This document shows positions 18,490 to 44,045 of a DNA stretch of 44,045 nt, in pieces. Position 1 is the stretch's first letter, and each line of letters starts with the position of its first letter. The position numbers were made by a program, and so were the translations under genes. The notes beneath the pieces were generated by a model. The model saw nothing but the letters and a program-made list of their open reading frames with translations, had not been told where the DNA came from and did no database searches. This stretch comes from Candidatus Hydrogenedentota bacterium (GTDB lineage: Bacteria; Hydrogenedentota; Hydrogenedentia; Hydrogenedentales; SLHB01): positions 1 to 44,045 of the forward strand of contig BTVY01000052.1 of the NCBI GenBank assembly GCA_045863335.1, written 5' to 3'.

Positions 18490-18492
18490 CGC

Positions 18493-18573
18493 GCGGCGGT
18501 CGACGTTGTCGGAGAATCCGCAGTAGTAGTGGCCGGACGTGGCGCTTTGGAGGATATAGGTCCAGTAGGGCAT
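18493..18573 (-). pseudogene. Truncated third GIY-YIG copy (first ~27 codons)
   Basis: Translates MPYWTYILQSATSGHYYCGFSDNVDRR versus MPYWTYILRSATSGRYYCGFSDNVARR in the intact copies. Homology stops at the araC stop codon; in-frame stop at 18439-41. Confidence 0.88.
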
Positions 18574-18598
18574 GGGATCGCTCCTTGCCTTGGCCTGG

Positions 18599-18636
18599 AA
18601 GAAAGCGCCCCGGTCCAGTTTTCACCGGACCGGGGC
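18599..18636 (-). terminator. Intrinsic terminator, array unit 3
   Basis: Minus strand GCCCCGGTCCGGT-GAAA-ACTGGACCGGGGC followed by GCTTTCTT. Confidence 0.7.
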
Positions 18637-18684
18637 ATATATGCATAAACCCCGGCTACTTCAATGCCACCGAGGGAAGGCATA

Positions 18685-18787
18685 TGGCTCACCCCGCCGT
18701 TGGCGGGACCCTGCGGGCCGAGTCAGACTCGAACTTGCGACCCGCTGGTTAATCCCGCGTGCCGCGGGACTCTACCAACTGAGCTAT
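18685..18787 (-). pseudogene. Pseudo-tRNA-Asn copy with two hairpin insertions
   Basis: Matches tRNA-Asn nt 7-24 and 35-76. Nt 25-34 are replaced by TCCCGCGGCACGCGGGA, and a 26-nt hairpin insertion lies in the acceptor 3' strand. Confidence 0.88.
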
Positions 18788-19050
18788 TCACCGTTCCCGA
18801 GTTTCAGGTCGTCCAGATAGCGGCCGATGCCGCGCTTCTTGATCTTCTTCTCCAACGCCATGGCCTCGGCGCGCGTGGCGGACTCGTTTTGCCAGACGAG
18901 TTCCCAAGGACCCTCGAAGCGTTTCGTGGTTTTCGAGCCGTGGTAGTTGGGGTCGTTGTGTTCGGCGACTCGGCGGGCCACGTTGTCGGAGAACCCGCAG
19001 TAGTAGCGGCCGGACGTGGCGCTACGCAGAATGTAGGTCCAGTAGGGCAT
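18784..19050 (-). CDS. Small GIY-YIG nuclease family protein (UPF0213/YhbQ-like), copy 2
   Basis: YWTYIL.S...GRYYCG.S.N..RR..EHN and EA...E..IKK motifs; 88 aa; identical to 43494-43760. Confidence 0.9.
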   Translation of the reverse strand: MPYWTYILRSATSGRYYCGFSDNVARRVAEHNDPNYHGSKTTKRFEGPWELVWQNESATRAEAMALEKKIKKRGIGRYLDDLKLGNGE

Positions 19051-19069
19051 GGGGTTGCTCTTTGCCTGG

Positions 19070-19107
19070 AAAAAAGCGCCCCGATCCAGTTTTCACCGGA
19101 CCGGGGC
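19070..19107 (-). terminator. Intrinsic terminator upstream of GIY-YIG copy 2
   Basis: 13-bp stem with GAAA loop followed by GCTTTTTT. Confidence 0.75.
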
Positions 19108-19169
19108 ATATATGCATAAACCCCGGCTAAAAGTTACTGCCGCCGAGGGAAGGCATATGGCTCCGCGCG

Positions 19170-19592
19170 ATGCGAACTCAGCGAACTTTTGCTTGCGGAT
19201 GGCACGTAGCGCCGGTCCATCGCAACTCGTTAGATCGCAATGTGATATATGCGGTGACTCAAGCTGAGGAGCCGGGCGAGAACGAACCGATCAGTGCAAT
19301 AGCGCTCTCATTGTCCTTTCGAAAGATGCTGGACGAAGGTACAGTCCGCGATCCGACCCACCTTGCGCAGCAATTGGGTCTGACTCGGGCTCGAGTCACC
19401 CAAATCCTGAACCTCCTCAAACTTCCACCAGCGGTCATCACTGAGCTGGGCGACGCCAACGAACCTGCCGAGATTGCCTTCTTCACCGAGAGGCGTCTGC
19501 GTTCCATGACCACGCTTACCTCTGCCCAAGAACAGCTTGAGGCTTTCCAGGCCATGAAAAAGGAACTTGTGGCACTCTCCGTTGCTCAGTAA
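19170..19592 (+). CDS. ParB/KorB-like HTH protein of the kind found beside or at the C-terminus of large serine recombinases
   Basis: F..MLDEG.V.D...LAQQLGLTRARVTQILNLLKLPP and TERRLR motifs; starts 5 bp inside the left junction; may be an N-terminally truncated remnant. Confidence 0.6.
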   Translation: MRTQRTFACGWHVAPVHRNSLDRNVIYAVTQAEEPGENEPISAIALSLSFRKMLDEGTVRDPTHLAQQLGLTRARVTQILNLLKLPPAVITELGDANEPAEIAFFTERRLRSMTTLTSAQEQLEAFQAMKKELVALSVAQ

Positions 19593-19988
19593 CGGCCAGC
19601 TGCCTCGGGTCCGTAGCTCATCCATCCAGGAGACAGACCCATCGCCGGCGAGATAACGGTGGACCCAGGGTAAGTCTCTCGTAGGATGTGAAATTGCAAC
19701 GCGTTCTTGTCAGCTAGGGTTCAGCCTACATAGTGCTCTAGGCAACTGACACTTCCATTGAAAGCAATCAGAAGTGGTGAACCCGTATCAGCAGCGATGG
19801 TCAAACAGAGCGTCGCGGCACCCACTAGCGGCATAGCCATGAACATCGATTCAACTCCAAGGGCAAAGCTGGTGACCTGTCAAGAAATCGACAAAGTACA
19901 TCTGCAAAGATGCCCCCACGACGGCGCGTTGCTACTCGCGCATTTGCACCATGAATAGCACTCTCCGCCGACTCGTATCAGGGGCAAC

Positions 19989-20016
19989 TTGAAATCTATA
20001 CATAAATATGTATAAC
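19989..20016 (+). promoter_or_regulatory. Promoter with overlapping palindromic operator, probably the Rrf2 autoregulatory site
   Basis: TTGAAA-16 bp-TATAAC, with TATACATA-AA-TATGTATA (19997-20014) overlapping the spacer and -10. Confidence 0.65.
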
Positions 20017-20050
20017 TATGGATAGAGGATGCAATCGAGCGAGGTGGTGC

Positions 20051-20467
20051 GTGTTACCCAAGACATCAGAGTACGCTTTGCGGGCTGTGGTGTGGTTGGC
20101 CCGCGAACCGGGGCGAAAGGCTTCGGCCGACCTCCTGGCCGAGCACACGAAGGTACCACGCCGTTATTTGCACAAGGTCTTACAGGACTTGGTGGGCGGC
20201 GGCCTCGTGTGGTCCCAGCCTGGTCCCGGCGGCGGCTACGCGTTGGCGCGACAACCTGAGGATGTCACGATCCTCGACGTGGTCAATTCCGTGGCGCCCT
20301 TGGAGCGTATCCGCAGTTGCCCGCTTGGGCTTCCATCGCACACGACACTCTGCCCTCTCCACAGCGAATTGGACCGGGTCTACGCCGCGGCGGAACGTGC
20401 GCTGGGGCGCGTGACGATTGCAGAGTTGCTCCGTTCGGCAAGCCCAGTCGTTCCGTTGTGCGGGTGA
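20051..20467 (+). CDS. Rrf2 family transcriptional regulator
   Basis: EYALRA, YL.KVL..L, S..G.GGGY.LA and DVV..V motifs; Cys/His set CPLG...H..LCPLH; GTG start after GAGGTG. Confidence 0.92.
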   Translation: MLPKTSEYALRAVVWLAREPGRKASADLLAEHTKVPRRYLHKVLQDLVGGGLVWSQPGPGGGYALARQPEDVTILDVVNSVAPLERIRSCPLGLPSHTTLCPLHSELDRVYAAAERALGRVTIAELLRSASPVVPLCG

Positions 20468-20504
20468 CGTAGCTTCAACGCCAGTTGAAAAAAGGAGAAT
20501 CCCG

Positions 20505-21236
20505 ATGAGCACGATTTCCGTTCAAGACATAGTGGGAGAGATTATCGCACAGCGCCCCATGCTTGCACATGTGTTTGAAGCGGCCGGCGTGGACTACTGC
20601 TGCGGCGGCAAAAAGACGCTGGAGGTGGCATGCCGGGAAAAGGGCCTTGATCCGCAGGCGTTCGCCGACAAGCTGGTGCGGTCAGAGGCGGCGTCCGAGG
20701 GGGAGCCGCTGGCGGATGCGGCGGCTATGTCGCTCACGGAGTTGGCCGACCACATCGAACACACGCACCATGCTTACCTCCGCTCGGAGTTGCCTCGGCT
20801 TGACGCGCTCACGGAGAAAGTGGCCTCCGTGCATGGAGGGGAAGACGCTCGCCTGCACGACGTTCGCAAGACCTTGCTTTCTCTGGCCGCCGAAATGACC
20901 AGCCACATGATGAAGGAAGAACAAATCCTGTTTCCCATGATACGCCGTCTGGAAATGAGCGATGCGCTTCCGAAGTTTCACTGCGGCTCGATCGCCAATC
21001 CGATCCGGCAGATGGAGATGGAGCATAACGATGCCGGCTCGGCGCTCGAACGAATGCGCGCGCTGACTGATGAATATACTCCGCCTGACTGGGCCTGTAA
21101 TACATACCGTGTGATGCTTGACGCGTTGGCCCGCCTCGAGCTCGACATGCATCAGCACGTTCACAAAGAAGACAACGTGCTGTTCCCGAGCGCCTTCAAG
21201 CTCGAAGCCGGACTTGCCGAAAGGGCAAAGGCGTGA
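20505..21236 (+). CDS. ric: Iron-sulfur cluster repair di-iron protein (Ric/YtfE/ScdA)
   Basis: DYCCGG, HH.YL..ELP, HM.KEE.ILFP, ME.EH and H.HVHKEDNVLFP motifs; AAGGAG RBS. Confidence 0.95.
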   Translation: MSTISVQDIVGEIIAQRPMLAHVFEAAGVDYCCGGKKTLEVACREKGLDPQAFADKLVRSEAASEGEPLADAAAMSLTELADHIEHTHHAYLRSELPRLDALTEKVASVHGGEDARLHDVRKTLLSLAAEMTSHMMKEEQILFPMIRRLEMSDALPKFHCGSIANPIRQMEMEHNDAGSALERMRALTDEYTPPDWACNTYRVMLDALARLELDMHQHVHKEDNVLFPSAFKLEAGLAERAKA

Positions 21237-21865
21237 TGGCCGTGCACGTGGGCGGCAAGCCGCTGGCGGATTTCAGCGCACCCATCGAGATGATGAAAGA
21301 TTGCCACCGGCGGATCGAGCATTTTCTCGAAGTATTGCAGGCGGCCGAACGGCGATTCGGCGGAAGCAATCTTGACGAGGAAGGACGCCACGCATTGGAT
21401 GCCTCGCTGAACTACTTCGCGAACTTCGCGCCGCGCCATACAGCTGACGAGGAGCAGTCGCTATTCCCACGGATGCGAAGTTCCGGCGACTTGGACGCAC
21501 GAGCGGTCTTAGCCGATCTGGAGCGCCTGGCAAACGACCATCGCGGTTGCGAGGCGCTCCATGCGCACGTTCACGGCGTAGTGAGCAATTGGCTCGGAAC
21601 GGGTCGGCTGGACGCCACTCAACGGAGTGGGCTTCGGGCGGCGCTTGATGAACTGATAAGAATCTATGCGGCCCACATTCAGCTTGAGGAAGGCCACGTT
21701 TTTGTGGTTGCAGATCGCATACTAAGGGCCGAGCAGATTCAGGAAATCGGCGAGGAAATGAGAGAGCGGCGATCGCTCGCGGGCCTGGGGCACACAGGCG
21801 TGAGCTTGTTCGAGAAGGAGAGGCTGCAGCCCGAGAGACCCTCGCGGCATGGAGTCGGGCGATGA
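21233..21865 (+). CDS. Hemerythrin-domain protein
   Basis: CHRRIE, RHTADEE.SLFP, DH and HI.LEE motifs; GTGA overlap with ric. Confidence 0.85.
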   Translation: MMAVHVGGKPLADFSAPIEMMKDCHRRIEHFLEVLQAAERRFGGSNLDEEGRHALDASLNYFANFAPRHTADEEQSLFPRMRSSGDLDARAVLADLERLANDHRGCEALHAHVHGVVSNWLGTGRLDATQRSGLRAALDELIRIYAAHIQLEEGHVFVVADRILRAEQIQEIGEEMRERRSLAGLGHTGVSLFEKERLQPERPSRHGVGR

Positions 21866-22224
21866 GCAAGTCACTGCACCTTCGCGTGAAGCAAATCTAT
21901 GAACCTCCGTCAAATCAAGACGGACTTCGAATCCTGGTGGATAGGCTGTGGCCGCGAGGGCTCAAGAAAGAGACCTGCAGACTCGACAGCTGGCTGAAAG
22001 ACATTGCGCCCAGCAATACACTGCGCCGCTGGTTTGGGCATGACCCGGCCCGTTGGGACGAGTTTCAACAGCGCTACTTCGAGGAACTAGATGAGAGACC
22101 GGACATCTGGCAGGCCGTCATGGAGCTGGCGCGGGGGAAAACCGTCACGCTTCTCTATGCGGCTCACGATTCCCAGCACAATAATGCTGTAGCCCTGAAG
22201 AATTATCTTCAACGCGTCCGCTAA
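21862..22224 (+). CDS. DUF488 (YeaO-like) protein
   Basis: DG.RILVDRLWPRGL.KE, W.K.IAPS..LR.WFGHDP and HNNAVALK motifs. Confidence 0.9.
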   Translation: MSKSLHLRVKQIYEPPSNQDGLRILVDRLWPRGLKKETCRLDSWLKDIAPSNTLRRWFGHDPARWDEFQQRYFEELDERPDIWQAVMELARGKTVTLLYAAHDSQHNNAVALKNYLQRVR

Positions 22225-22367
22225 ACCGATGGGATTCGATGACGCCATGATCCGGCGTTCGTAAAACGATTCGACAGGAGATGACGATCCCGGAAGAAGA
22301 AGACCGACGATAGCACACTGCAATCTCCGGCCAAGTTCATTCTGATTTTGTGAAAGGAGAGACTATC

Positions 22368-22712
22368 ATGGCAATTCCGCACGCGGCTCCCGGTATTCCC
22401 GTGGATCTTCGGCCACAAGCCGAGGGGTTTTCCGAGGCGAAGGCGAACGCGCTGGTAAAGACCGAGGGCTTTGAGGCTATCCGGATGGAGATCCCAAAAG
22501 GACACGAGGTATGTCGCAATCACCAGGTGGAAGGCCCAATCACGATCCATTGTATGAAAGGCCAAATTGCATTTACTGCAAATGGCGAGATGCGAGTTGT
22601 ACCTGAGGGGCATTGGCTTTTTTTGCCGGGTGGTGTCCCTCACACTATCGTTGGGAGAGAGGACTCTTTGGTCTTGTTGACGATCATGTTTCGTTCGCGC
22701 AATGCCAACTAA
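22368..22712 (+). CDS. Small cupin domain protein
   Basis: MAIPHA.PG, H.V.GPITIHC..G and L.GG.PH motifs; AAGGAG RBS. Confidence 0.85.
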   Translation: MAIPHAAPGIPVDLRPQAEGFSEAKANALVKTEGFEAIRMEIPKGHEVCRNHQVEGPITIHCMKGQIAFTANGEMRVVPEGHWLFLPGGVPHTIVGREDSLVLLTIMFRSRNAN

Positions 22713-22733
22713 CCCACCTGAAAGGTAAAACAA

Positions 22734-23213
22734 ATGCAACCGCGACTTGATTATGCGAGCGTCGCTCCGGATGGCGTTAAGGCCATGTGGGGATTGGAGA
22801 AATACGTGCACGGCTGCGGACTGGAGCCTTCCCTGCTGGAACTCGTGAAGACCCGCGCCTCCCAGATTAATGGCTGCGCCTTCTGCATCGACATGCACAC
22901 CAAGGATGCCCGGGCCGGCGGCGAGACAGAGCAGCGACTCTACGCGCTCTCCGCCTGGCGCGAGACGCCATTCTTCAGTGACCGGGAGTGCACCGCTCTT
23001 GCGTGGACCGAAGCTGTGACCAACGTCGCACAAACGAATGTTCCCGACGAAGTCTATGAGCTCGCTCGGCAGCACTTCGACGAGAAAGAGTTGGCAGACC
23101 TGACGCTGGCGGTTGTGGCGATTAACGGCTGGAACCGGCTGGCCGTCAGTTTTCGGAAGGTGCCGGGGACGCATGAGCCTTCACAGCACAAAGGATGCCC
23201 CACGGTCGTGTGA
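22734..23213 (+). CDS. Carboxymuconolactone decarboxylase/AhpD family protein
   Basis: LLELVK.RASQINGCAFCIDMH and INGWNRL motifs. Confidence 0.92.
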   Translation: MQPRLDYASVAPDGVKAMWGLEKYVHGCGLEPSLLELVKTRASQINGCAFCIDMHTKDARAGGETEQRLYALSAWRETPFFSDRECTALAWTEAVTNVAQTNVPDEVYELARQHFDEKELADLTLAVVAINGWNRLAVSFRKVPGTHEPSQHKGCPTVV

Positions 23214-23355
23214 AGGCGGCGCCTGTGCCGTCCCGCCTGGTAGCTGAACTCGCGCCAAGAATCAATGCGTGGGCCGCCGATAATCGATCAGGAGACGACC
23301 GGAGCGGTCAACGGCAGCCGATGTTGAAGCACTTAGAATGGGAAAGGTGGCAGCA

Positions 23356-24045
23356 ATGAAGCGCATAGGCTTAATCGGAGGGCTCAGCCCCGAGTCCACT
23401 GTTCATTACTATGAAATAATCTGTCGCGAATACAATCGCCAGGCCGGCGAATTAAACTTCCCGGAAATCACAATCCAGAGTCTAAACCTGCAGAAGTTGA
23501 TCCCGCACTTCGAACATAACGACTGGGACAAGGTCGCTGCCATTCTTCTGGACGCTTTGCACTGTCTCAAGAACGCCGGCGCCGAATTCGCGGCGATTCT
23601 GGCAAACACGCCGCACAACGCCTACGACCTAATCCGCGACTCGAGTCCGCTGGAAATCCTCACGATTATGGATGCGACGTCCGAGGCGCTCGTTCACGAT
23701 GCCCGGCGGATGGTTGCGCTGCTGGGCACACGGCCCACCATGGAGTTCGGGTTTTTCCAGAAGCATTTTCAGGCGAGTCATATCGAAACGCTCGTTCCCG
23801 ACGCCCACGCGCGGCAGGAGTTGGACCGTATTGTGTGGGAGGAGCTGTCGCACGGAACCGTGCGCCCCGAATCCCGCGCATCGGCTAAGGGCATGATTGC
23901 CGATTTGACCGCTCAGGGCGCCGAGGCAGTGATTCTTGGCTGCACGGAACTCTGCCTTCTAATCCAGCCAGAGGACAGTCCAAAGCCACTCTATGACACG
24001 ACCCGCATTCACGCCGAAGCGATTCTCAAGTTTGCGATGGAGTAA
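23356..24045 (+). CDS. Aspartate/glutamate racemase family protein
   Basis: IGLIGGLSPEST..YY, ANTPH, LLGT..TM, LGCTEL and DTT.IH motifs. Confidence 0.88.
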   Translation: MKRIGLIGGLSPESTVHYYEIICREYNRQAGELNFPEITIQSLNLQKLIPHFEHNDWDKVAAILLDALHCLKNAGAEFAAILANTPHNAYDLIRDSSPLEILTIMDATSEALVHDARRMVALLGTRPTMEFGFFQKHFQASHIETLVPDAHARQELDRIVWEELSHGTVRPESRASAKGMIADLTAQGAEAVILGCTELCLLIQPEDSPKPLYDTTRIHAEAILKFAME

Positions 24046-24055
24046 CCGGAATATC

Positions 24056-25210
24056 ATGAGCGACACGCAAGAACCGGACTGGAACCCAAAAGCAGCGGAT
24101 GTATTGCGCGACCAACGCGCGGCTTACGACGCCATGCGCGGGCACTGCCCAGTCGCCTATAGCGAACTGATGCATTGGTCCGTGTTTCGGCACGAGGAAG
24201 TGATGCGCGTGCTCTCGGACCACGAGACCTTCAGCAGCACCGTTTCGGAGCACTTGTCTGTTCCAAGCGGCATGGATCCACCCGAGCATACGGCATATCG
24301 TGCAATTGTCGAACGGTATTTTTCCGGCGAGCGGATAGCGGCGTTCGAGCCTATCTGCCGCAACCTCGTTGTGGATCTGGTCCAGGATCTGCTCGAACGT
24401 GGTCAGGTGGAGCTTGTTGCTGATTTTGCGCTGCCTTTTGCGGCACGGGCCCAATGCGCCTTTCTAGGTTGGCCGTCAACGTTGCAGGAACCGATCATCC
24501 GCTGGACGCAGAAAAGCCACGTCGCCACGTTCGCCCAGGATCGCAAAGTCATGTCTGAGATTGCGCGGGAGTTCGAGGACTTGGTTGACGAGCTTATAGA
24601 GGACCGGCTTGAAGCTGGCGCCAAGGCGGATGACGACATTACGGCGTCCCTCATGCACGACACGGTTTGGGGACGACCGTTAAGCCACGAAGAAATAGCG
24701 AGTATCCTGCGAAATTGGACTGTCGGGGAGATCGGGACAATTTCCGCCGCCGTTGGGATATTGGCTCATTATCTTGCCGAACACGCCGATCTTCAATCGC
24801 AACTTCGGGCGGAGCCGTCGCTCTTGCCTGCCGCCATCGATGAGATTCTGCGGATTCACGGCCCCCTCGTTGTCAATCGGCGAGTCACAACCCGGCCTGT
24901 GGAAATCAATGGCCGGCAAATCGGCGCAGGCGAACGAGTCTCGCTCATGTGGATTTCCGCCAATCGTGATGGCCGGGCCTTTGACGAACCGGATTGCTTT
25001 CGTTTTGATCGGGATGTGGAGAAGAATCTTCTGTACGGCGCCGGCTTGCACGTTTGCCCAGGCGCACCGCTTGCGCGACTCGAGATGCGAGTCTGGCTGG
25101 AAGAATTGTTGGCCCGCACAGACAGCGTCGGGCTCGTTCCGGGAACTCCCCCAAGAAATGCGGTTTACCCCGGCAGCGGATTTGCCAAATTGCCGCTATT
25201 GATACAATAA
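24056..25210 (+). CDS. Cytochrome P450
   Basis: MDPPEH..YR, EILR (ExxR), ANRD...F..PD.F and heme motif YGAGLHVCPG..LAR.E. Confidence 0.95.
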   Translation: MSDTQEPDWNPKAADVLRDQRAAYDAMRGHCPVAYSELMHWSVFRHEEVMRVLSDHETFSSTVSEHLSVPSGMDPPEHTAYRAIVERYFSGERIAAFEPICRNLVVDLVQDLLERGQVELVADFALPFAARAQCAFLGWPSTLQEPIIRWTQKSHVATFAQDRKVMSEIAREFEDLVDELIEDRLEAGAKADDDITASLMHDTVWGRPLSHEEIASILRNWTVGEIGTISAAVGILAHYLAEHADLQSQLRAEPSLLPAAIDEILRIHGPLVVNRRVTTRPVEINGRQIGAGERVSLMWISANRDGRAFDEPDCFRFDRDVEKNLLYGAGLHVCPGAPLARLEMRVWLEELLARTDSVGLVPGTPPRNAVYPGSGFAKLPLLIQ

Positions 25211-25489
25211 CGCAGCCGAGACTTTTGTTCGATCCATCGACATGCAGTTCGCCAGGATTGACAAGCGAGGTCCGTAAGACGGTAGACCGTCTTGGAAAAT
25301 GCTGCGAATAGAACGACGGTGCAAAGTGCGTCCCAAGGGCACGATGCGCGTAAGCGCGAGTACGAACGGCGCAAGCATTCGTGGTAATGTCCCAGATTGC
25401 CTGGGGTCCATAGTTGTTCTGGTTGCCATAGAACCTGGAAAGTTGCTTGTTGAGGGTCGGGTCCAGGTCGGCTTGCAGGTGTCGAGCAT

Positions 25490-26163
25490 TTAAGGTTCAC
25501 ACAATTGATTTCGCAACCACTATAGTGACGGCGGCGGCGATGGTATTTCCTCCCATGAAATCGGTCGCATCAGCATCAAGGGCTTTTACGATAGTCCCCG
25601 CCTCGCCTTCGGCCGCGCGGGACGCCGCCCCCAACTTCCTTAGACTGGTGACACATGCCGCTCAGTTCAATCGATTCAAGGATCGTCCCGTTTTCAGGTA
25701 GCACGGACCGCTGAACTTCGCTTGCCAGACGAACCTCGGTTTCGAGCTGTTCCCGGCGTCGTGTTTCGTTCTTCAAGACTTCCAGGTGGTTCTCCAGGGA
25801 TTTAGCCATAGTGTTCACACTCATCGCGAGCCGCCGCAGCTCTTCCGGACCGGTTATGTGCGCGCGCACTTGGAGATCGCCGCTGCCGATTCTCGCGACG
25901 CTTTCCGACAGCATCGCGAGTGGAGTGGAGATTTTGTGACTCAGGAAGGCAGCGATTACCAGCGCACACGCGACCATAAGGGGCGCGAAGGCAGAAACAA
26001 ACACGATCCGTCTATATATCATTGAGGAAGGCGCTCCACCTACGGGCCACAGGACAATACCGATGACTCGCCCTGGGTTGGGTCCAACCGTCCCAGCAAG
26101 GACCAATTCTCCTCCGTTCAGCTTTTCAACGCAGACGCCGTTGCGCCCGCTGATCTTTATCAT
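25490..26163 (-). pseudogene. Degraded HAMP + SpoIIE/PP2C phosphatase gene
   Basis: TM helix, HAMP (PL..L......IG.GDL...EL..LA..VN.M), E..LA.EVQ.S.LP, then ..KEVGG. The sequence then jumps, in another frame, to a PP2C-like C-terminus (IVKAL..DA.DFMGG......VTIVV); the catalytic core is missing. Confidence 0.65.
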
Positions 26164-26345
26164 GCGACGCCAAGTGTCAATATCTTCCGGGGCAAGAGTG
26201 GCCGTACCTGACCAGTTTCCTCGATAGCTTCCGCCTCACGTCTTGCGGCCTTTGTTACAACCAGCACGGTTTCGTGCTCGTGTTCAAGTATGTCCGCTGC
26301 TCTCATAACGTAGTCTCCTGGATCTCGTGGACCTCAAGCCACCGT

Positions 26346-27008: not shown

Positions 27009-27116
27009 GCCAGTTCTCCTTTGTTGCAGGTGCCGGCTTTTCGGCCTCGGGCGCCTTTCCGTTGCCGTTTCCAATCGCTTCGCTGAAGAGCCCCCAGGCC
27101 TTTTCGGCCTGACGGG

Positions 27117-27145
27117 TTGACAAAGGGTAGATATTGGGGTAAAAT
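27117..27145 (+). promoter_or_regulatory. sigma70-type promoter of the tetR-rnk gene
   Basis: TTGACA (27117-22), 17-bp spacer, TAAAAT (27140-45). Confidence 0.8.
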
Positions 27146-27178: not shown

Positions 27179-27199
27179 TTCGTGGAGGTATGAAAAATA

Positions 27200-37324: not shown

Positions 37325-37480
37325 GATTTCCTTCCTTTGCGGGACTACATTAAACAACCACAGCCCCGCTATCGGCTCCGTGACGCGGAACGTCCGGTTG
37401 GCGGATCTTGTGCGGCCTCTCGGCACGCACAGTCGACTGACACGGCTCGCAGCCGTCTCCAATCAAGTCGATGTTCGAGT

Positions 37481-38221
37481 TTAGTACCCGCTAAAGTCTT
37501 CCGCTCGGACGTTGCCAGGGTTCACGCCCCGTTCGGCGAGGAGCGCCCGCATGCTGTCAACAAATCGAGGCGGACCAACAACATAATAAACCGGTGAAAT
37601 CGCATCGGCTACGTGCTTTGCGAACAGTTCCCAACTGAGGTGTTCGGTGCAACCGGTCCACTCTTGCCGGGACTCTTTCAAGCGGGTCATGCTTGCTACC
37701 AGTTGGTAGTGAGGATTAACGCTCTGTAAATCAGTCAATTCGTCGAGAAACAGCGCGTCTTCAGGTTTATGGTTCGAGTAAAAAAGAACTGTCCGCAGCG
37801 GCAGCTCTTTCCACGCTGCGGAAACAAGAATGCTCCGGACCGGCGTAATACCGATGCCGCCGACTACAAACACGGCTGTTTGCGCCGTGCCAATATCCAT
37901 CGCGAAACTGCCGCCGGGACCATCAATTCTCACTTCCGAATTCAGTTCCAATTGCGAAAGCCGCTGTTTGAATACAGTGTTGCGCAATCGGGTCGCCACC
38001 ATGAGAAAGTTCTCGTGAGGTGCGCTTGCAATCGACAAGGTACGGCTTTCTCCCGGCGCGTTAGCGTCGAGAGGATCCGGCAAGGTCAGCGTGAGATATT
38101 GCCCGGGGCGAAATGTGAAACTCGCGGGCTTCTCGAATTTCAGCGCGAGGGTCTGCGACGCGGCGATGGATCGTTCTGTCAGTTTGAGCCGGTAAACGGT
38201 TGTGCCAGTTTGTGAGGCCAT
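37481..38221 (-). CDS. FNR-like FAD/NAD(P)-binding oxidoreductase
   Basis: F.F.PGQY, R.LSIAS.P, GP.G.F, GGIGITP, GPP and E.F.GY motifs. Confidence 0.9.
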   Translation of the reverse strand: MASQTGTTVYRLKLTERSIAASQTLALKFEKPASFTFRPGQYLTLTLPDPLDANAPGESRTLSIASAPHENFLMVATRLRNTVFKQRLSQLELNSEVRIDGPGGSFAMDIGTAQTAVFVVGGIGITPVRSILVSAAWKELPLRTVLFYSNHKPEDALFLDELTDLQSVNPHYQLVASMTRLKESRQEWTGCTEHLSWELFAKHVADAISPVYYVVGPPRFVDSMRALLAERGVNPGNVRAEDFSGY

Positions 38222-38358
38222 TGAAACTATCCCTTTCTATCTGTGGCGGGCTGTGTAAAGACTACACCGCAATTTCGGCCTGACGGTATCGCGATCCGCC
38301 ACTTCTGGACCTGAAGTATGTCAATTTGTGGTTCCCGCGCCTGGGCGCGCGTTTTCTC

Positions 38359-38730
38359 TCACAGTGTCTGCGTGGCGGAAAGGATTGTTATCTCCATGGC
38401 CGCCCTCACCCAAGGAAATTTCTCCTTGACGAAATCAAACGACTTACCCGATTTTATGAAAGCCGCCGTGCCCTTGATCAGGAACCCAGCGCCGGGGCCG
38501 TGGTGTCCCCGCACCTCGCGGCTCCCAAGAGTCATAAGAATATTGTTGTCTTTCTCTATATTGGCTTCCGTACGCAACATGCCGCCAACCGGCAACAAGA
38601 GATGTCCCTCTCGGGTGACATGGATATAGCTGTTCCAAGTGTTTACCAAGTGCGGGCCTTCGACGCCCATTGTGGAGATCGCAACCACCCCTTCGTATTC
38701 TAGAATCTGAGTCATCTTGTCGGGGATCAT
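38359..38730 (-). CDS. FMN-binding split-barrel protein (Desulfovibrio FMN-bp/PNPOx-like)
   Basis: EGVVAI.T.G..GPHLVNTWNSY, PVGGM..TEAN, MTLGSR.V.G..GPG.GFLI.G and terminal QTL match the FMN-bp pattern. Confidence 0.88.
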   Translation of the reverse strand: MIPDKMTQILEYEGVVAISTMGVEGPHLVNTWNSYIHVTREGHLLLPVGGMLRTEANIEKDNNILMTLGSREVRGHHGPGAGFLIKGTAAFIKSGKSFDFVKEKFPWVRAAMEITILSATQTL

Positions 38731-38742
38731 ATGCGAGCCTCC

Positions 38743-39213
38743 TTATGTTTTGCGCGCCGTGGGTTGATAGGTTCCCGGAACGGTGCGGAACGCAATTGCC
38801 AGCCGGTTCCACCCATTTATTGCGACAATCGCCAAGGTGAGATCTACGAGTTCCGCCTCCGTAAACTGCTGGCTGGCCACTTCGAAGACCGTCTCCGGCA
38901 CGTGTCCAGCGCTTACCAGTGTTACTGCTTCCGTCCAAGCCAAGGCGGCGCGTTCGCGCGCTGAGAAGAAAGGAGTTTCCGCCCAGGCCGAAAGCGCGTA
39001 CAGCCGCTGCTCGGTTTCGCCGCCAACGCGGGCATCCTTGGTGTGCATGTCGATGCAATAGGCGCATCCATTGAGCTGCGATGCTCGAGTCTTGACCAGT
39101 TCGAGTAGCGATTGCTCCAACCCGCACTGATGGACGTAGTTTTCGAGCCCCCACATCGCTTTGATGGCGTTCGGGCTCGTCTCTTTGTAATCGATGCGTG
39201 ATTTCAAGAGCAT
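38743..39213 (-). CDS. Carboxymuconolactone decarboxylase/AhpD family protein, second paralogue
   Basis: RASQLNGCAYCIDMH and INGWNRL motifs; closely similar to 22734-23213; exact start uncertain. Confidence 0.92.
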   Translation of the reverse strand: MLLKSRIDYKETSPNAIKAMWGLENYVHQCGLEQSLLELVKTRASQLNGCAYCIDMHTKDARVGGETEQRLYALSAWAETPFFSARERAALAWTEAVTLVSAGHVPETVFEVASQQFTEAELVDLTLAIVAINGWNRLAIAFRTVPGTYQPTARKT

Positions 39214-39240
39214 TCTCCTCGTCATAACGCGCGGCTTGCG

Positions 39241-40992
39241 TTAGTTCGCCTTTGTTTTCGCCTCATAAAGGCACTTCTTTATCTGCTCGACGGTGTCCAG
39301 TTGCAGCACAAATCGAGCCCATTCTTCGGCGTGCTGCACGTTTGTCGAACGTATTGCGTTCTTGATCTCCAAAATCTCGGCTGGGCTAACACTGAGTTTC
39401 CTGAACCCTAATCCGAGCAACAGGGCGGTATAAGCGGGGTTGCCGGCCATCTCCCCGCAGATAGAGATGCTCTTGCCGGCGGCCACAGCCGCCGACGCCA
39501 GTAACGAGAGGACTTCCAGTACCGCGGGATGGAGTGGCTCATAATATGGAGACATTGCGCTGCTCATCCGGTCCGTAGTTAATAGGTACTGCACCAGGTC
39601 ATTGGTGCCAATACTAAGAAAATCAACTTCCGAGACAAGCCGGTTAATCATGATGGCTGCGGCCGGTGTCTCAATCATCGCACCAATCAGAATGTCTGGG
39701 TTAAACGACTGACTCTCCGCCGACAGGCTCTCCTTCGCGTTCGCGACGGCTGTCTTGGCGGCACGCATATCTTCTATGTCCCCGACCATGGGAAAAAGAA
39801 TAGAAACCGGATGAGTGGCGCTCAGACGTAGAATCGCGCGCAGTTGCGATCGCAGAATCTCGGGATGCGCCAATAGCAACCGGGTACCACGACGCCCCAA
39901 CGGCGGATTCGATTCATGAGGCAAGGGAAAGTATGGGAGTACCTTATCGCTTCCGATGTCCAAGACCCGAATTACGACTTCGCGCGGCTCCAATCGGGCT
40001 GCCGCTCCGCGGTACATTTGGTACTGCTCTTCTTCGGAGGGGAAATGATCCTGCACGAGAAAGACAAACTCGGTGCGGTAAAGCCCGACACCATCGGCAT
40101 TCAACTTGGCTGCCGTAACGCTATCCGCCGACTTGCCAATATTTGCGCAGAGTTGGATTGGAATTCCATCGAGCGTTACCGCCGGAACGTGAATTAGACT
40201 TTCCAGAGCGGTTTGGTGAGCACGAAGATCTTTCCCGAGTTGGTCGTACTCCCGCGCAACTTCGGGGGAAGGATTGACAAACACTCGACCTGCCAATCCG
40301 TCTACGATGAGTTCGTCACCCTGTCGTATCCTCGATGTGGCGTCGGGAACGTTGAGCAGGAACGGAATACCGTGGGCGCGGGCGAGTATTGTAGCGTGGG
40401 CTGTTTGGCCGCCTGTCTCGGCCACCAATCCACGAATTTTTCGAGTACTCAATTGCGCCATTACGGAGGGTAACAATTCGGTAGTAACGATGATGCTTTC
40501 ATCGGGAATAGTAGGGACGTTCGTAAAATGGCTCGTTACCAAAGCATCTAGTATCCGCTTACCAAGGTCCCTAAGGTCAGCCGCTCGCTCATGGAAATAG
40601 GGATCTTCGATGCGGACGAACGAAGATACTAATTTCGCTACGGCCTCATCAACGGCGGCCTCCACGTTGACTCTTTCGATGAGGCAACGTGTTCTAATTT
40701 CCTCGCGCAACGAAGGGTCGTGTAACAGAGCGATCTGGACGTCAAGAATGCGAGATTCTTGCTTGCCGATCTCCCGCAGAACCACCTGTTGCAACTTTAA
40801 TAAATCCCGTTCAACGATGGGAACAGCGGCATCGAAGCGATCTATTTCCTTCTGAGGATCATGACCATCTATTACCTGTCGCGGCACGGAATTGTGTCCG
40901 ACGCATCCGCACACGAACGCCTGGCCACGGGCCACGCCAGGAGAGGCCACCTCGCAAACGATCATTATTGATGTTTTCTCGCTATCCGTCAT
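39241..40992 (-). CDS. ptsI: Phosphoenolpyruvate-protein phosphotransferase (PTS enzyme I)
   Basis: ERAADLRD, GG.TAHATILAR (phospho-His), GVGLYRTEF, R.LDIG.DK, MIETP, SIGTNDL.QY and ICGEMAG motifs; no GAF domain. Confidence 0.92.
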   Translation of the reverse strand: MTDSEKTSIMIVCEVASPGVARGQAFVCGCVGHNSVPRQVIDGHDPQKEIDRFDAAVPIVERDLLKLQQVVLREIGKQESRILDVQIALLHDPSLREEIRTRCLIERVNVEAAVDEAVAKLVSSFVRIEDPYFHERAADLRDLGKRILDALVTSHFTNVPTIPDESIIVTTELLPSVMAQLSTRKIRGLVAETGGQTAHATILARAHGIPFLLNVPDATSRIRQGDELIVDGLAGRVFVNPSPEVAREYDQLGKDLRAHQTALESLIHVPAVTLDGIPIQLCANIGKSADSVTAAKLNADGVGLYRTEFVFLVQDHFPSEEEQYQMYRGAAARLEPREVVIRVLDIGSDKVLPYFPLPHESNPPLGRRGTRLLLAHPEILRSQLRAILRLSATHPVSILFPMVGDIEDMRAAKTAVANAKESLSAESQSFNPDILIGAMIETPAAAIMINRLVSEVDFLSIGTNDLVQYLLTTDRMSSAMSPYYEPLHPAVLEVLSLLASAAVAAGKSISICGEMAGNPAYTALLLGLGFRKLSVSPAEILEIKNAIRSTNVQHAEEWARFVLQLDTVEQIKKCLYEAKTKAN

Positions 40993-41187
40993 GCGCTCAC
41001 GCTATTCCAATACTCGGTGCGGGACTTTGTGCCCTGGTTCCCCGTCACGTCCAGCTGTTATGGCGGCATCTACTCCGGTTGATTTTATGCGCGTCATCAA
41101 AATTGCACGCCTATCTCCGGCGCGTTCCCCAAAAAACAGGTCCAGTTGGAGTGAGAGGAACCGACCAACTGGCGCTACGCGTGAGTT

Positions 41188-42456
41188 TCATTGGGGAATC
41201 CTCGTAATAAGGCGTGCGGTCTTGTTCCACGTTAGGTAACTCCATCCCCATTGCACAAACACAAGAAGACGGGCCTCGAATAGCACCAACTTCATGAGAT
41301 GGACAAACAGCCAGAATACCCACGCCAGGTGCCCGGGCAAACACACGCCGCCAATCCTCGCCACCGCGAGCCGCCGCCCAACAGTGGCCATCATGCCATA
41401 GTCGCGATAATGAAATGGGGGCATCAACTGCCCAGAGAGGCGGCGCTTTATAGAGATTCCGACATAGCGGCCTGCCTGGGCGGCAACGGGAGCAATGGCC
41501 GGCAGAACTGTGCCGTCACTTATTCCGACACTGGCGAGGTCACCAATAATGAAGATCTCTGGATGCTTCGATAGGGCCAGATCCGGCCCAACAGCAATGC
41601 GGCCAATTCTATCCTGTTCAGCGCCTGAATCTCGGGCAAGCTGATCGGCCAAGCGAGATGCCTTAATACCCGCTGCCCACAGGACGGTTCGTGCTTGGAT
41701 ACGCTCATTCCTGTCTGGGGTCTGAAGCGTAACTCCGTCATTGTCGATATCGAGAATAGTCGCACCCGTTTGCAGCTCGACATTGAGGTCCCGCAGGTAT
41801 CCCGCAGCCTTCCGCGATAGTTCTGCCGGGTAGGGAGGCAGCACACGATCGTTTTGTTCAACTAAAACGATGCGTGCATCGCTGGGTTCAATACTTCTGA
41901 ATTCGTTCGTGAGCGTATAGCGCGCAATCTCGGCGAGTGCACCGGCCAACTCGACGCCCGTCGGGCCGCCCCCTACGATGACGAATGTAAGTAATGCCTG
42001 GCGTGCGTCAGGATCTGGCTCGAATTCGGCGCGTTCAAACGCGGACAGGATCTGCGCGCGCATCTCCGTCGCATCTTCGACGCTCTTCAGGCCTTGCGCG
42101 CGTAATGCCCACGTGTCTTTCCCAAAGTAACTCGTCTCCGAACCCACCGCCATGATCAACGTGTTATACGTAATTGCGTCGTCCAATAGCTTGACACGAC
42201 GCCCCTCTACATCGATTCCCTTCACTTCCCCTAGCCGGACATTAACGTTGGGTTGGCGCCTGAATACATGTCGTAGCGGAGCGGCAATGTTGGCGGGCGA
42301 CAATCCTCCTGTCGCTACTTGATAAAGTAGTGGCTGGAACAGGTGGTAGTTGTTCTTGTCAACGAGAGTAATATCTACCGGCGCCCGACGCAGCGCTCGC
42401 GCCGCGGCTAATCCGGCAAATCCGCCTCCTGCAATAACTACCTTGTGTTTGCTCAT
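41188..42456 (-). CDS. ndh: Type II NADH dehydrogenase-like NAD(P)/FAD oxidoreductase
   Basis: GGGFAGL, HLFQPLLYQVATG, VGGGPTGVELAG, WAAG, GD and F.Y.D.G.MATVGR motifs. Confidence 0.9.
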   Translation of the reverse strand: MSKHKVVIAGGGFAGLAAARALRRAPVDITLVDKNNYHLFQPLLYQVATGGLSPANIAAPLRHVFRRQPNVNVRLGEVKGIDVEGRRVKLLDDAITYNTLIMAVGSETSYFGKDTWALRAQGLKSVEDATEMRAQILSAFERAEFEPDPDARQALLTFVIVGGGPTGVELAGALAEIARYTLTNEFRSIEPSDARIVLVEQNDRVLPPYPAELSRKAAGYLRDLNVELQTGATILDIDNDGVTLQTPDRNERIQARTVLWAAGIKASRLADQLARDSGAEQDRIGRIAVGPDLALSKHPEIFIIGDLASVGISDGTVLPAIAPVAAQAGRYVGISIKRRLSGQLMPPFHYRDYGMMATVGRRLAVARIGGVCLPGHLAWVFWLFVHLMKLVLFEARLLVFVQWGWSYLTWNKTARLITRIPQ

Positions 42457-42479
42457 TGCCACTCGGCTATACCCTCGGT

Positions 42480-42914
42480 TCATTTCCTGGTTGATATGAC
42501 AGCCACGCGCCCACCCATTGACAGGCCCATGGCGGGCACGCAAACACGCCGCCAATACGGCACGTTTGCGTGCAAATCTTCATTGGCAGCCACAAAGATG
42601 ATGGTAACCAGTAAGACGCAGTCGGTCCTCGCTTCAATAGTGTGCACTTTCCCGCCCTCGATGTGGAGCCAATTCCCGGCGCGCAATGCCCGCGGCTCCG
42701 ATTTCACAAAGAAAACCGCGTCCCCTCGAAGACAGTGCACGGCGATCGGGCCATTTACCTTGTGGGGCGGCACGGTGCTCCCCGCACGGATGAATAGCCG
42801 GACGGTTTCAAAGTGCTTTGCCTTCATGAGCGCAATAGTATGCGTATCCGTTTTTTCCCCGCCGTACGTCTTCAAGTCGATGACTTCACCGGGTTCCGCA
42901 TGTTTTATAGCCAT
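42480..42914 (-). CDS. Small cupin domain protein, paralogue of 22368-22712
   Basis: MAIKHAEPGEVIDL, HKV.GPI.VHCL.G and GG.VH motifs; C-terminal ~35 aa look like read-through. Confidence 0.8.
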   Translation of the reverse strand: MAIKHAEPGEVIDLKTYGGEKTDTHTIALMKAKHFETVRLFIRAGSTVPPHKVNGPIAVHCLRGDAVFFVKSEPRALRAGNWLHIEGGKVHTIEARTDCVLLVTIIFVAANEDLHANVPYWRRVCVPAMGLSMGGRVAVISTRK

Positions 42915-43106
42915 TACTTTGTCTCTTCCGCATCTGTGTTCGCCCTGATCAAGTACTGCAGGCCGATTACGATTGGGAAACCATTTCCTTGTTAACGCGA
43001 TTGTTCGATAGCGCGCACGCCGGGCGCCGCTTCCAACGGCTTTTTTGCGATGCCACGACGCCGCCAACACCGCGCTATAGGGTCAACAGAAACAAGGTGG
43101 CATTCT

Positions 43107-43273
43107 ATTCGGGCCGGCCGGGCATGCGCGGGAGAATCTTGGCCTTACCTGCCCTCCGGCCCTCGCGAGACCGGTCCCGGTAAAGCCTTGCTACGGCGCT
43201 ACTTCCACGAGAAGCGGCAATGTGCTGAACCCGCTTGCAGGGTACGCGGCCCGCTTCGCCGGCCGGGCCGAGT
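43107..43273 (-). ncRNA. Candidate structured RNA or ssDNA element (unassigned)
   Basis: Nested complementary segments paired by eye: terminal stem, UACC(C)UGC/GCAGGUA, AAGCGG/CCGCUU, and a CCGGUC..GCGA..GGCCGG hairpin. Confidence 0.35.
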
Positions 43274-43424
43274 TTAATTTGATTCGAGTAGTGCTCCGAA
43301 GGAGCTCCTCCAGGGTTACCCATAATTCCACCCTAGCCAGCGGAGTATCAAGAACAGGCAAACTTTCTGGGAGATCTTGACATCATGTTAACCAATCGCC
43401 GTTTAGTCAGTTTTCTCATTTTGA

Positions 43425-43497
43425 TCCCCGAGCAAGACTCGAACTTGCGACCCGCTGGTTAATCCCGCGTGCCGCGGGACTCTACCAACTGAGCTAT
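43425..43497 (-). pseudogene. Pseudo-tRNA-Asn copy whose 3' end is split by the island
   Basis: tRNA nt 7-24, a 17-nt hairpin (43463-79), then nt 35-72; the remaining GCCA is at 19158-19161. Confidence 0.9.
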
Positions 43498-43760
43498 TCA
43501 CCGTTCCCGAGTTTCAGGTCGTCCAGATAGCGGCCGATGCCGCGCTTCTTGATCTTCTTCTCCAACGCCATGGCCTCGGCGCGCGTGGCGGACTCGTTTT
43601 GCCAGACGAGTTCCCAAGGACCCTCGAAGCGTTTCGTGGTTTTCGAGCCGTGGTAGTTGGGGTCGTTGTGTTCGGCGACTCGGCGGGCCACGTTGTCGGA
43701 GAACCCGCAGTAGTAGCGGCCGGACGTGGCGCTACGCAGAATGTAGGTCCAGTAGGGCAT
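43494..43760 (-). CDS. Small GIY-YIG nuclease family protein, copy 1
   Basis: Same 88-aa sequence as 18784-19050; its TAG stop is nt 8-10 of the following pseudo-tRNA. Confidence 0.9.
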   Translation of the reverse strand: MPYWTYILRSATSGRYYCGFSDNVARRVAEHNDPNYHGSKTTKRFEGPWELVWQNESATRAEAMALEKKIKKRGIGRYLDDLKLGNGE

Positions 43761-43779
43761 GGGGTTGCTCTTTGCCTGG

Positions 43780-43817
43780 AAAAAAGCGCCCCGATCCAGT
43801 TTTCACCGGACCGGGGC
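43780..43817 (-). terminator. Intrinsic terminator between tRNA-Asn and GIY-YIG copy 1
   Basis: GCCCCGGTCCGGT-GAAA-ACTGGATCGGGGC followed by GCTTTTTT. Confidence 0.78.
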
Positions 43818-43867
43818 ATATATGCATAAACCCCGGCTAAAAGTTACTGCCGCCGAGGGAAGGCATA

Positions 43868-43943
43868 TGGCTCCCCGAGCAAGACTCGAACTTGCGACCC
43901 GCTGGTTAACAGCCAGCTGCTCTACCAACTGAGCTATCGGGGA
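43868..43943 (-). tRNA. tRNA-Asn (GTT)
   Basis: TCCCCGATAGCTCAGTTGGTAGAGCAGCTGGCTGTTAACCAGCGGGTCGCAAGTTCGAGTCTTGCTCGGGGAGCCA; 76 nt, complete cloverleaf, encoded CCA. Confidence 0.98.
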
Positions 43944-44045
43944 TTAAACTTGGTTCCGACGCTGCTGGTTAATCCCGCTTGAAGGCGGGACTCTACCAAC
44001 TGAGCTATCGGGGATTAAACTTGGTTCCGACGCTGCTGGTTAATC
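43920..44045 (-). repeat. 71-bp tandem repeat of tRNA leader + tRNA 5' half + hairpin, running off the window end
   Basis: Unit = 20-nt leader AGCGTCGGAACCAAGTTTAA + tRNA nt 1-24 + TCCCGCCTTCAAGCGGGA + nt 35-43; period 71 (43943 vs 44014). Confidence 0.9.

Follow-up and report, generated by a model that had tools for sequence, protein, structure and literature searches.

The closest described counterpart of the locus reported here is the SsnA system of Neisseria meningitidis. SsnA (NMV_0044) is a 94-aa protein made of a single GIY-YIG domain, which according to the text of the paper describing it binds the NTS hairpin repeat CGTCATTCCCGCGMAVGCGGGAATCYRG as single-stranded DNA (ssDNA) only and on one strand only, requires both the sequence and the structure of the stem, cuts a few nucleotides upstream of the hairpin, is inactive on double-stranded DNA (dsDNA) and RNA, and is inactivated by the mutations Y6A, Y17A and E64A (Chenal et al., Nat Commun 2025, PMC11893778). 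The ssnA genes are typically flanked by the repeats in the order NTS-ssnA-NTS, the flank of the NTS governs cleavage in Neisseria, and SsnA reduces transformation by NTS-flanked DNA in that genus; the role of Ssn proteins outside Neisseria is stated there to be unknown (PMC11893778). In this work we analyzed a stretch of 44,045 nucleotides from a Candidatus Hydrogenedentota bacterium (contig BTVY01000052.1 of assembly GCA_045863335.1), here called the window, in which genes for an 88-aa GIY-YIG protein alternate with hairpin-bearing pseudogenes of tRNA-Asn. The locus probably comprises a nuclease gene of the Ssn type and the hairpins that its product recognises, built into copies of tRNA-Asn. 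The first-pass annotation of the window had proposed an undescribed system; this has to be given up for the nuclease-hairpin pair, which judged from its sequence is of an already known kind, the hairpin having the palindromic core of NTS and SRM, the ssDNA target of SsnA (PMC11893778). What appears to be unreported is the location of hairpins in tRNA-Asn copies beside the anticodon-loop TTAA, the open reading frames (ORFs) which stop inside the tRNA fragment, and the tandem arrays with cargo between the units.

The 88-aa protein matches the Pfam GIY-YIG profile PF01541 over residues 3-72 (E 3.2e-16, 59.8 bits with a cut-off of 22.6), and the residues Y6, Y17, R27, H31 and E67, which make up the catalytic Tyr-Tyr-Arg-His-Glu set, are invariant across 30 aligned relatives. 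Its AlphaFold model is one confident domain of alpha/beta fold (pLDDT 87.2), for which Foldseek matched UPF0213, Slx1, the N-terminal domain of UvrC and I-TevI, so that by its profile as well as by its catalytic residues and fold the protein is a GIY-YIG superfamily member. At 88 aa in one domain it falls within the size range of the Ssn family (single-domain GIY-YIG proteins of less than 150 aa), as do the complete ORFs of the related loci described below (81-108 aa), and it shares with the published SsnA a length of about 90 aa, tyrosines at positions 6 and 17 and hairpins on both sides of the gene. The closest solved structures by sequence and by fold are the UPF0213 protein BH0048 (1zg2) and Slx1 nuclease domains (TMq 0.57-0.69). 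The UPF0213/Slx1 lineage (BH0048, EF2693 with structure 1ywl, and Slx1) thus gives the best matches among solved structures in both respects; identity over the aligned folds is no higher than 23-30%. Slx1 selects branched DNA by its structure, and we know of no tRNA or hairpin context for UPF0213/Slx1 proteins. Searches of the ESM Atlas returned generic GIY-YIG clusters only, and our literature search found no paper on UPF0213 together with GIY-YIG.

On its minus strand the window reads, in order, 71-bp half-tRNA repeats, an intact tRNA-Asn(GTT), a terminator-like hairpin, the 88-aa GIY-YIG gene, a pseudo-tRNA, a large insert, a second unit and a diverged third unit (Table 1). This layout had been described in the first-pass annotation and is borne out, with 0 mismatches between units 1 and 2 over ~439 bp (43873..43435 versus 19163..18725, spacing 24,710). 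The same is true of the point at which the nuclease gene and the tRNA fragment are joined, as both 88-aa ORFs terminate on the TAG of ..gaaTAGctcagttggtagag, corresponding to nt 8-10 of the tRNA. The pseudo-tRNAs are missing the 5' acceptor strand and have nt 25-34 (CAGCTGGCTG) swapped for TCCCGCGGCACGCGGGA; they are not functional tRNAs, scoring 23.1 bits in Rfam where the cut-off is 29 and receiving no call from ARAGORN, for which the intact tRNA-Asn (RF00005, 70.8 bits) is the sole tRNA in the window. Each 71-bp short unit is composed of nt 1-24 of tRNA-Asn, an 18-nt hairpin (43990..43973 in the complete copy), nt 35-43 (TTAACCAGC) and ~20 nt resembling a truncated T-arm, and such short units number exactly two in the closely related locus L001. 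The third nuclease copy ends where a converging AraC-family gene (17452..18489) stops. When Rfam was searched with the window, at gathering thresholds and at E up to 10, the tRNA alone was returned, and the hairpin units match no described RNA family. Tandem Repeats Finder reported no repeats in the window, because the insert splits the copies and the end of the window cuts the 71-bp array. The window contig taken alone may be an assembly artefact; the same architecture, however, is present in many independent assemblies.

A protein search identified 134 relatives, all with PF01541. Among the matches listed, 25 of 120 relatives lie on contigs of less than 800 bp, as an assembly-breaking repeat would produce, though contigs of this size are frequent in any case. 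An alignment of 30 relatives was then used to scan one genome per species, and the best 80 of the 397 confirmed matches were kept, giving 79 loci whose record titles name Hydrogenedentota, Thermodesulfobacteriota, Nitrospirota, Acidobacteriota, Zixiibacteriota, Verrucomicrobiota, Pseudomonadota and others. In the first-pass annotation it had been proposed that homologues be checked for tRNAs within 300 bp and for variation in the type of tRNA. The first check was strongly positive: scored for the first full-length nuclease copy of each locus over 300 bp upstream on the same strand, an intact tRNA-Asn(GTT) was found in 53 of the 79 loci and a tRNA-Asn 3' fragment in a further 11, while the upstream region is cut by a contig end in five. 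The second revealed no variation, since only Asn adjoins the nuclease gene and the six other called tRNA genes in the 79 loci are at least 1.3 kb away. ARAGORN also produced some odd calls of 82-96 nt (Ser-gct, Gly-gcc, Phe-aaa and Asn-att; L051 545-626, L055 4869-4957, L074 5587-5682, L079 2916-3002), which lie on or beside mostly hairpin-bearing tRNA-Asn-derived sequence and look like false tRNA calls of a kind that might find its way into tRNA annotations. Our literature search turned up no report that connects tRNA-Asn with GIY-YIG or Ssn genes, the matches being organelle genome papers or unrelated work; in PMC11893778 the word tRNA is absent from the main text and occurs in the spreadsheets only within Neisseria gene annotations.

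The distribution over phyla has to be read with some care. The tRNA-Asn gene of L001, labelled Nitrospiraceae, is identical to those of the window and L003, and that of L019, labelled Bathyarchaeia, is identical to those of L002 and L009, all four being Hydrogenedentota loci; both contigs are probably mis-binned, to judge from these identities, and the phylum counts based on record titles are therefore soft. In a protein tree built from 79 rows and 82 columns (C-terminal tails removed, L077 included with a fallback start) the phylum labels required 21 changes compared to a shuffle mean of 27.9 and are thus more clustered than in the shuffles, and several of the labels of metagenome-assembled genomes (MAGs) look wrong. 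The loci L059 and L061, on two contigs of one MAG, each have a tRNA-Asn followed by the nuclease gene and encode identical proteins, which means that the genome has two such loci or that its assembly contains a duplicate. Searches of plasmids gave no DNA match of the unit and, by tblastn, two weak Vibrionaceae matches (34-35% identity), annotated as a GIY-YIG gene with a YceH-family gene next to it and set aside as uninformative. The phage collection yielded no match.

The hairpin is the key feature that links the locus to the Ssn family. The pattern TCCCGCN{3,6}GCGGGA occurs three times in the window where 0.08 matches are expected, and three or more were seen in none of 100 shuffles; two of the hairpins flank nuclease copy 1, on its 5' side (43990..43973) and its 3' side (43479..43463), which is the arrangement of inverted repeats both 5' and 3' of the gene that is typical of the Ssn family. 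The pattern is found in 68 of the 79 related loci, and across phyla there is a recurring motif GAG-TCCCGC-N-GCGGGA-TTAA which is located after the ORF and in ORF-less repeats upstream of the live tRNA. The loci and the window together hold 177 instances, of which 141 are distinct, the CCCGC/GCGGG stem being fixed by the search pattern in this count. The inner part of the hairpin is mostly 5 nt, and the next inner pair covaries, with 99 of 119 being Watson-Crick or GU pairs (C-G 58, T-A 26, G-C 13). Folding as ssDNA predicts a stem of 7-9 bp and a 3-nt loop on either strand. In the nine sources inspected the hairpin is nearly confined to tRNA-Asn-derived sequence, with one variant copy outside it in L002. 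It replaces the same segment, nt 25-34, in 79 of the 141 distinct instances and so abuts the anticodon-loop TTAA. As to the right flank, 83 distinct instances have the anticodon loop there (TTAA followed by C, T or G), 16 the T loop (TTCGA) and 10 the D loop (TTGGT). Of the 141, 98 show the orientation AA|core|C on the antisense strand, compared with four on the sense strand. Locus L021 differs in its arrangement: its leader repeats (4300-4870, period ~97 bp) have two hairpins per unit, one in place of the D-loop CTCAG and one in place of nt 25-34, and its downstream pseudo-tRNA has an insertion of ~40 nt which ends in GCGGGA directly before the T-loop TTCGA.

Comparison with the published repeat shows that the NTS CGTCATTCCCGCGMAVGCGGGAATCYRG itself fits TCCCGCN{3,6}GCGGGA, that in both cases the stem is conserved in sequence and not in structure alone, and that the antisense strand of the window, which reads GGTTAA-TCCCGCG-TGC-CGCGGGA-CTCTAC, resembles CGTCAT-TCCCGCG-MAV-GCGGGA-ATCYRG of NTS (PMC11893778). 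There are also differences: NTS is dispersed in hundreds of intergenic copies whereas the hairpins here are nearly confined to tRNA-Asn copies; the ORF is here fused to a tRNA fragment and the nuclease-hairpin units are in tandem; and the 5' flank is the anticodon loop GTTAA where the SRM pattern has GTCWY. The palindromic anticodon loop GTTAAC of tRNA-Asn thus supplies the flank which in Neisseria governs cleavage (PMC11893778). Owing to this flank the hairpins are not matched by the SRM pattern HGTCWYN(0-2)YYVSBRHN(0-5)WNVSBRGN(0-2)RNCYNB, which had only five matches in the 665,050 bases of the loci and the window, two of them with CCCG. The paper reports SRM near 71% of homologues (PMC11893778), and the pattern is therefore taken as a search aid and not as a strict requirement; as it is unmatched here, we speak of an NTS-core hairpin with different flanks.

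Apart from the SRM pattern, several other observations weigh against an assignment to the Ssn type. Chenal et al. delimit the Ssn clade by a top CDD assignment of cd10448 or a blastp E < 1e-10 to SsnA CAX49033.1 (PMC11893778), and our placement in this clade is inferred from size, architecture and hairpin. The top sequence matches among solved structures are UPF0213 proteins, which may or may not count as Ssn. The exact hairpin pattern is missing in 11 of the 79 loci, and 10 loci have no tRNA-Asn sequence within 300 bp upstream of the nuclease gene, although tRNA-Asn-derived sequence lies just downstream in seven of these 10. An intact tRNA is found downstream of the nuclease gene in L005, L031, L046 and L055, meaning that the arrays have no single polarity. 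Lastly, only two of the 75 inner branches of the protein tree are well supported, and because of this poor resolution vertical descent cannot be separated from transfer.

The welding of nuclease gene and tRNA fragment into one module, which the first-pass annotation had recognised in the window, turned out to be conserved. Stop positions were scored for 94 full-length ORFs including the two of the window, and in 72 of them the stop codon lies within a tRNA-Asn-derived segment. The most frequent position is the anticodon-loop TAA (nt 36-38) or its TGA variant (40 ORFs), followed by the TAG of the D-arm GGTAGAG (10 ORFs), the hairpin (seven ORFs) and the TAG at nt 8-10 as in the window (five ORFs), with another 10 stopping elsewhere in the tRNA fragment; the remaining 22 stop outside any detected fragment, some of them in what are degenerate hairpins. 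The C-terminal tails ..ESRxxRRD and ..GGC, which are common in the relatives, are the hairpin or an intact anticodon arm translated in frame.

The copies within a locus are also homogenised. When the 3' part of the pseudo-tRNA was compared for 27 ungapped copies, the tRNA of the same locus was the best match in 26 and identical in 21, while the 61 intact tRNAs comprise 43 distinct 3' parts. As the pseudo-tRNA 3' parts track the local tRNA, the copies must have been made locally or been kept alike by gene conversion. Such homogenisation would also be expected if the arrays were a passive by-product, in which unequal crossing-over between tRNA-Asn copies duplicated a bystander gene and the copies then decayed with a hairpin of no function, and it is established that long direct repeats alone can yield tandem arrays. 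Random decay, however, would not give the same hairpin and junction in loci labelled as several phyla, would not put a hairpin at all three tRNA loops and would not match the target of the characterised relative SsnA, and we regard this explanation as highly improbable.

Tandem arrays, first noticed in the window, recur elsewhere, and 11 of the 79 loci have at least two full nuclease copies. Among them are L058, where a 5-Mb contig has five units with identical ORFs that repeat every 351-353 bp, and L045, with four units and a period of 332 bp. Units at the distal end have been truncated or have decayed in L003, L004, L009 and L029 as well as in the window. The final pseudo-tRNA of an array may bear an extra insertion of ~25 nt in the 3' acceptor strand, as observed in the window (18701-18727, minus strand), L003 (5340-5370) and L002 (5336-5358), and in the window and L003 this insertion contains a second, degenerate hairpin (CCCGCCAACGGCGGGG). 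On the other side of the array, 36 of the 60 loci with an intact tRNA have a hairpin or 5' tRNA half in the 1 kb upstream of that tRNA, the leader of L002 having nine copies with a 75-bp period, and the other 24 have none. In 39 of 54 loci the stretch from the tRNA to the start codon (median length 47 nt) includes a hairpin with a T-run after it, which leaves a median of 11 nt before that codon, and read-through of this terminator would be the simplest reading of how the nuclease gene is expressed. By eye, a promoter-like TTGCAA-N18-TACACT can be seen in L001 and L003 immediately ahead of the first short unit; a consensus scan made no call there, for which reason we treat transcription of the leader repeats as conjecture.

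It is this order of repeats, terminator-like hairpin and nuclease gene in the window that had led the first-pass annotation to an analogy with type III toxin-antitoxin (TA) loci. In such a module a leader hairpin RNA, or a tRNA-like 3' tail of the mRNA, would bind and neutralise a toxic nuclease, and ToxIN indeed has tandem repeats, a terminator and a nuclease gene in the same order with expression by read-through. The leader copies in 36 of 60 loci, the terminator-like element just before the start codon in 39 of 54 and the single hairpin after each ORF all fit. Toxins of the ToxN type are, however, endoribonucleases whose repeats act as RNA, while GIY-YIG enzymes are DNases and the protein described here has a DNase fold. 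Further, 24 of the 60 loci have no leader copy, the stem is invariant in sequence and not freely covarying, as for a DNA site that is read by its sequence, and a PADLOC scan of the protein at E up to 1, with type III TA models included, matched no family. Together with the reported lack of any interaction of SsnA with RNA or activity on RNA and dsDNA (PMC11893778), these points leave a TA-like module as an extremely improbable explanation, and the analogy was not upheld.

A second proposal, also contained in the first-pass annotation, was that of an element that cuts at tRNA genes. In its classical form this would be a homing element of tRNA-Asn: the duplex gene would be cut at the anticodon arm, repair from the element-bearing copy would add a unit, and the hairpin would render the resulting pseudo-tRNA immune. 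The strict specificity for tRNA-Asn across phyla, the substitution of one and the same segment (nt 25-34) in 79 of 141 distinct hairpin instances and the truncated or decayed distal units listed above are in its favour. Phage T4 SegB, a free-standing homing endonuclease of the GIY-YIG type whose gene sits in a cluster of tRNA genes, offers a precedent and shares with the present locus both the position of a GIY-YIG gene among tRNA genes and the logic of selfish inheritance. Seg enzymes and I-TevI, however, have a C-terminal DNA-binding domain and cut duplex DNA, whereas the protein encoded here is the catalytic domain alone: 81-108 aa leave no room for a DNA-binding domain, and in an NCBIfam scan of the 88-aa protein nothing was above cut-off, the family profile TIGR01453 (group I intron endonuclease) reaching 12.2 bits where 56.05 are needed. 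In addition, the live tRNA-Asn beside each array retains the supposed target, the invariant hairpin fits a recognition site better than a scar, and the characterised relatives are reported not to cut dsDNA (PMC11893778). Homing into duplex tRNA genes is thus distinctly unlikely. Two further candidates were rejected: a group I intron in the anticodon loop, as an intact tRNA is already present upstream and the unit consists almost wholly of ORF, and a classical integrase att-site scar as the origin of the units, as there is no recombinase and the hairpin is conserved.

Returning to the Ssn-type reading, the following sequence of events could account for the locus. Transcription reading through the tRNA-Asn terminator would give low expression of the nuclease, which would nick the antisense strand beside the hairpins when the locus becomes single-stranded, as for example in replication or DNA uptake, a strand and cut site which we infer from the similarity of the flanks. 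Whether or not such nicks take part, the long direct repeats derived from the tRNA would drive unequal recombination or template switching. This would build and homogenise the arrays, in which nuclease-pseudo-tRNA units lie to one side of the live tRNA and the ORF-less 71-bp units occupy its leader. Amplification of the array by repair is plausible, and foreign DNA, here the 24-kb insert of the window, would land at the repeated tRNA 3' ends. The module may be selfish, in the manner of an insertion sequence (IS), or may have been domesticated to control recombination at a tRNA-Asn hot spot. A small nuclease gene lying between its cognate ssDNA hairpins, each beside a short fixed flank (here AA/TT, often GTTAA), is also the arrangement of REP/RAYT and of IS200/IS605 elements. 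These depend on HUH/Y1 transposases with covalent intermediates, whereas GIY-YIG enzymes hydrolyse, and no transposition has been shown for an Ssn nuclease. The parallel with such elements is discussed by the Ssn authors themselves (PMC11893778).

A bolder version, which we consider unlikely though deserving of mention, is a recombinase-free mobile module that targets the tRNA-Asn gene in its single-stranded state. The ssDNA would fold as a cloverleaf, in all three loops of which a hairpin is observed 5' of TT (TTGG of the D loop, TTAA of the anticodon loop, TTCGA of the T loop), the almost universally conserved arms of tRNA-Asn would act as portable homology for spread between phyla, and arrays of decoy tRNA ends would capture cargo (the 24-kb insert, RhuM/Fic in L042). 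If true, this would give the Ssn family a natural biology, that of an ssDNA-based selfish element specific for a tRNA gene.

The insert of the window measures ~24,263 bp, its junctions being ambiguous by 3 bp, and is bordered by nt 72 of pseudo-tRNA 1 on one side and by the GCCA-spacer of unit 2 on the other. The junctions share GGA only, the far end has no direct repeat of the tRNA 3' end, and no recombinase, integrase or transposase domain was found by Pfam among the ORFs scanned in the window, in agreement with the earlier remark that no transposase or integrase is present to explain the duplication; the insert thus lacks the marks of an integrase-borne genomic island. Its genes are of stress and metabolic types and include those for Rrf2, hemerythrin/ScdA, an aconitase, a PEP-utilising enzyme and oxidoreductases (Pfam). 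The 24.26-kb segment is absent from the syntenic locus L002, where homologues of the window genes at 8.9-11.0 kb follow the array within ~2 kb. In L060 (4348-4968, minus strand) a homologue of the ParB-type HTH gene at the end of the insert (56% identity by tblastx) adjoins the nuclease gene, and the sequence of the insert end is similar to that of the window, TTCGCTGAGTTCGCA .. GGAGCCA, again at the 3' end of tRNA-Asn. These shared ends suggest a family of inserts that lodges at the extreme 3' end of tRNA-Asn copies with no recognisable integrase. A small-scale parallel is L042 (5365-7312), in which two units encoding slightly different proteins bracket 2.2 kb with a RhuM/Fic-domain gene and a TPR gene. 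In L049 (3635-4903, minus strand) the nuclease gene is separated from tRNA-Asn by a gene for an ISL3-family transposase, and this accounts for the unusual distance of 1.4 kb between the two in this locus.

The position of the cargo bears on a further alternative, a domesticated guard in which decoy tRNA ends and an ssDNA nuclease would limit or steer recombination at tRNA-Asn, by analogy with what has been proposed for NTS-flanked genes in Neisseria. The insert of the window sits at the 3' end of a decoy and the live tRNA is untouched, a related insert end lies at a tRNA-Asn 3' end in L060, and SsnA is reported to lower transformation by NTS-flanked DNA (PMC11893778). Cargo did integrate nonetheless, and such a guard overlaps with an Ssn-type nuclease and its recognition hairpins rather than excluding it; as a separate explanation it is very unlikely.

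Table 1. Features of the tRNA-Asn/nuclease array and of the insert in the window.
Feature	Position	Strand	Evidence and remarks
Partial ORF-less short unit	44015..44045	-	Hairpin end, TTAACCAGC and ~20 nt; final 31 nt, rest cut by window end; direct repeat, period 71
Complete 71-bp short unit	43944..44014	-	Direct repeat; nhmmer match to tRNA positions 1-24
Intact tRNA-Asn, anticodon GTT	43868..43943	-	ARAGORN; Rfam
Terminator-like hairpin (14 pairs) and T-run	43777..43818	-	Between tRNA and nuclease gene
Nuclease gene copy 1, 88 aa	43494..43760	-	Pfam PF01541; stop TAG is tRNA nt 8-10
Pseudo-tRNA-Asn 1 (nt 8-72)	43425..43497	-	Rfam 23.1 bits; nhmmer positions 7-72
Hairpin H, TCCCGCG-GCA-CGCGGGA, NTS-core type	43463..43479		Adjoins anticodon-loop TTAA; pattern search
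Inserted segment, ~24,263 bp	19162..43424		Repeat spacing, junctions, Pfam
ParB-type HTH gene, 140 aa, at insert end	19170..19592	+	PF17762, 23.8 bits (cut-off 22.6)
Unit 2 spacer	19051..19161	-	Same terminator-like hairpin at 19108..19077; 0 mismatches to unit 1 spacer
Nuclease gene copy 2	18784..19050	-	Protein identical to copy 1; Pfam, sequence comparison
Pseudo-tRNA-Asn 2	18701..18787	-	Hairpin H at 18769..18753; 27-nt insertion in 3' acceptor strand; nhmmer, pattern search
Unit 3 spacer, diverged	18574..18700	-	Repeat comparison
Truncated third nuclease copy, 27 codons	18494..18573	-	24/27 codons identical to full copies

Ssn nucleases were first described in 2025, and the 79 relatives reveal a clade in which gene and hairpin lie inside tRNA-Asn copies, in records labelled with at least six phyla. 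The locus would provide a defined and conserved natural substrate in the antisense strand of a tRNA gene, namely the GTTAA-hairpin site, and suggests how hairpin-nuclease pairs arise, spread and amplify. It also flags arrays of tRNA-Asn pseudogenes as a source of assembly breaks and tRNA mis-calls, and as insertion sites of islands, in uncultured lineages. Should the enzyme cut as predicted, it would add a new specificity to a family under development as ssDNA tools.

Two minor features of the insert may be recorded. On the plus strand at 27200-30761 there are three paralogous GreA/GreB C-terminal (Rnk-like) genes, one of which is fused to a TetR N-terminal HTH, and a 28-nt repeat is found within the insert at 28682 and 30716.

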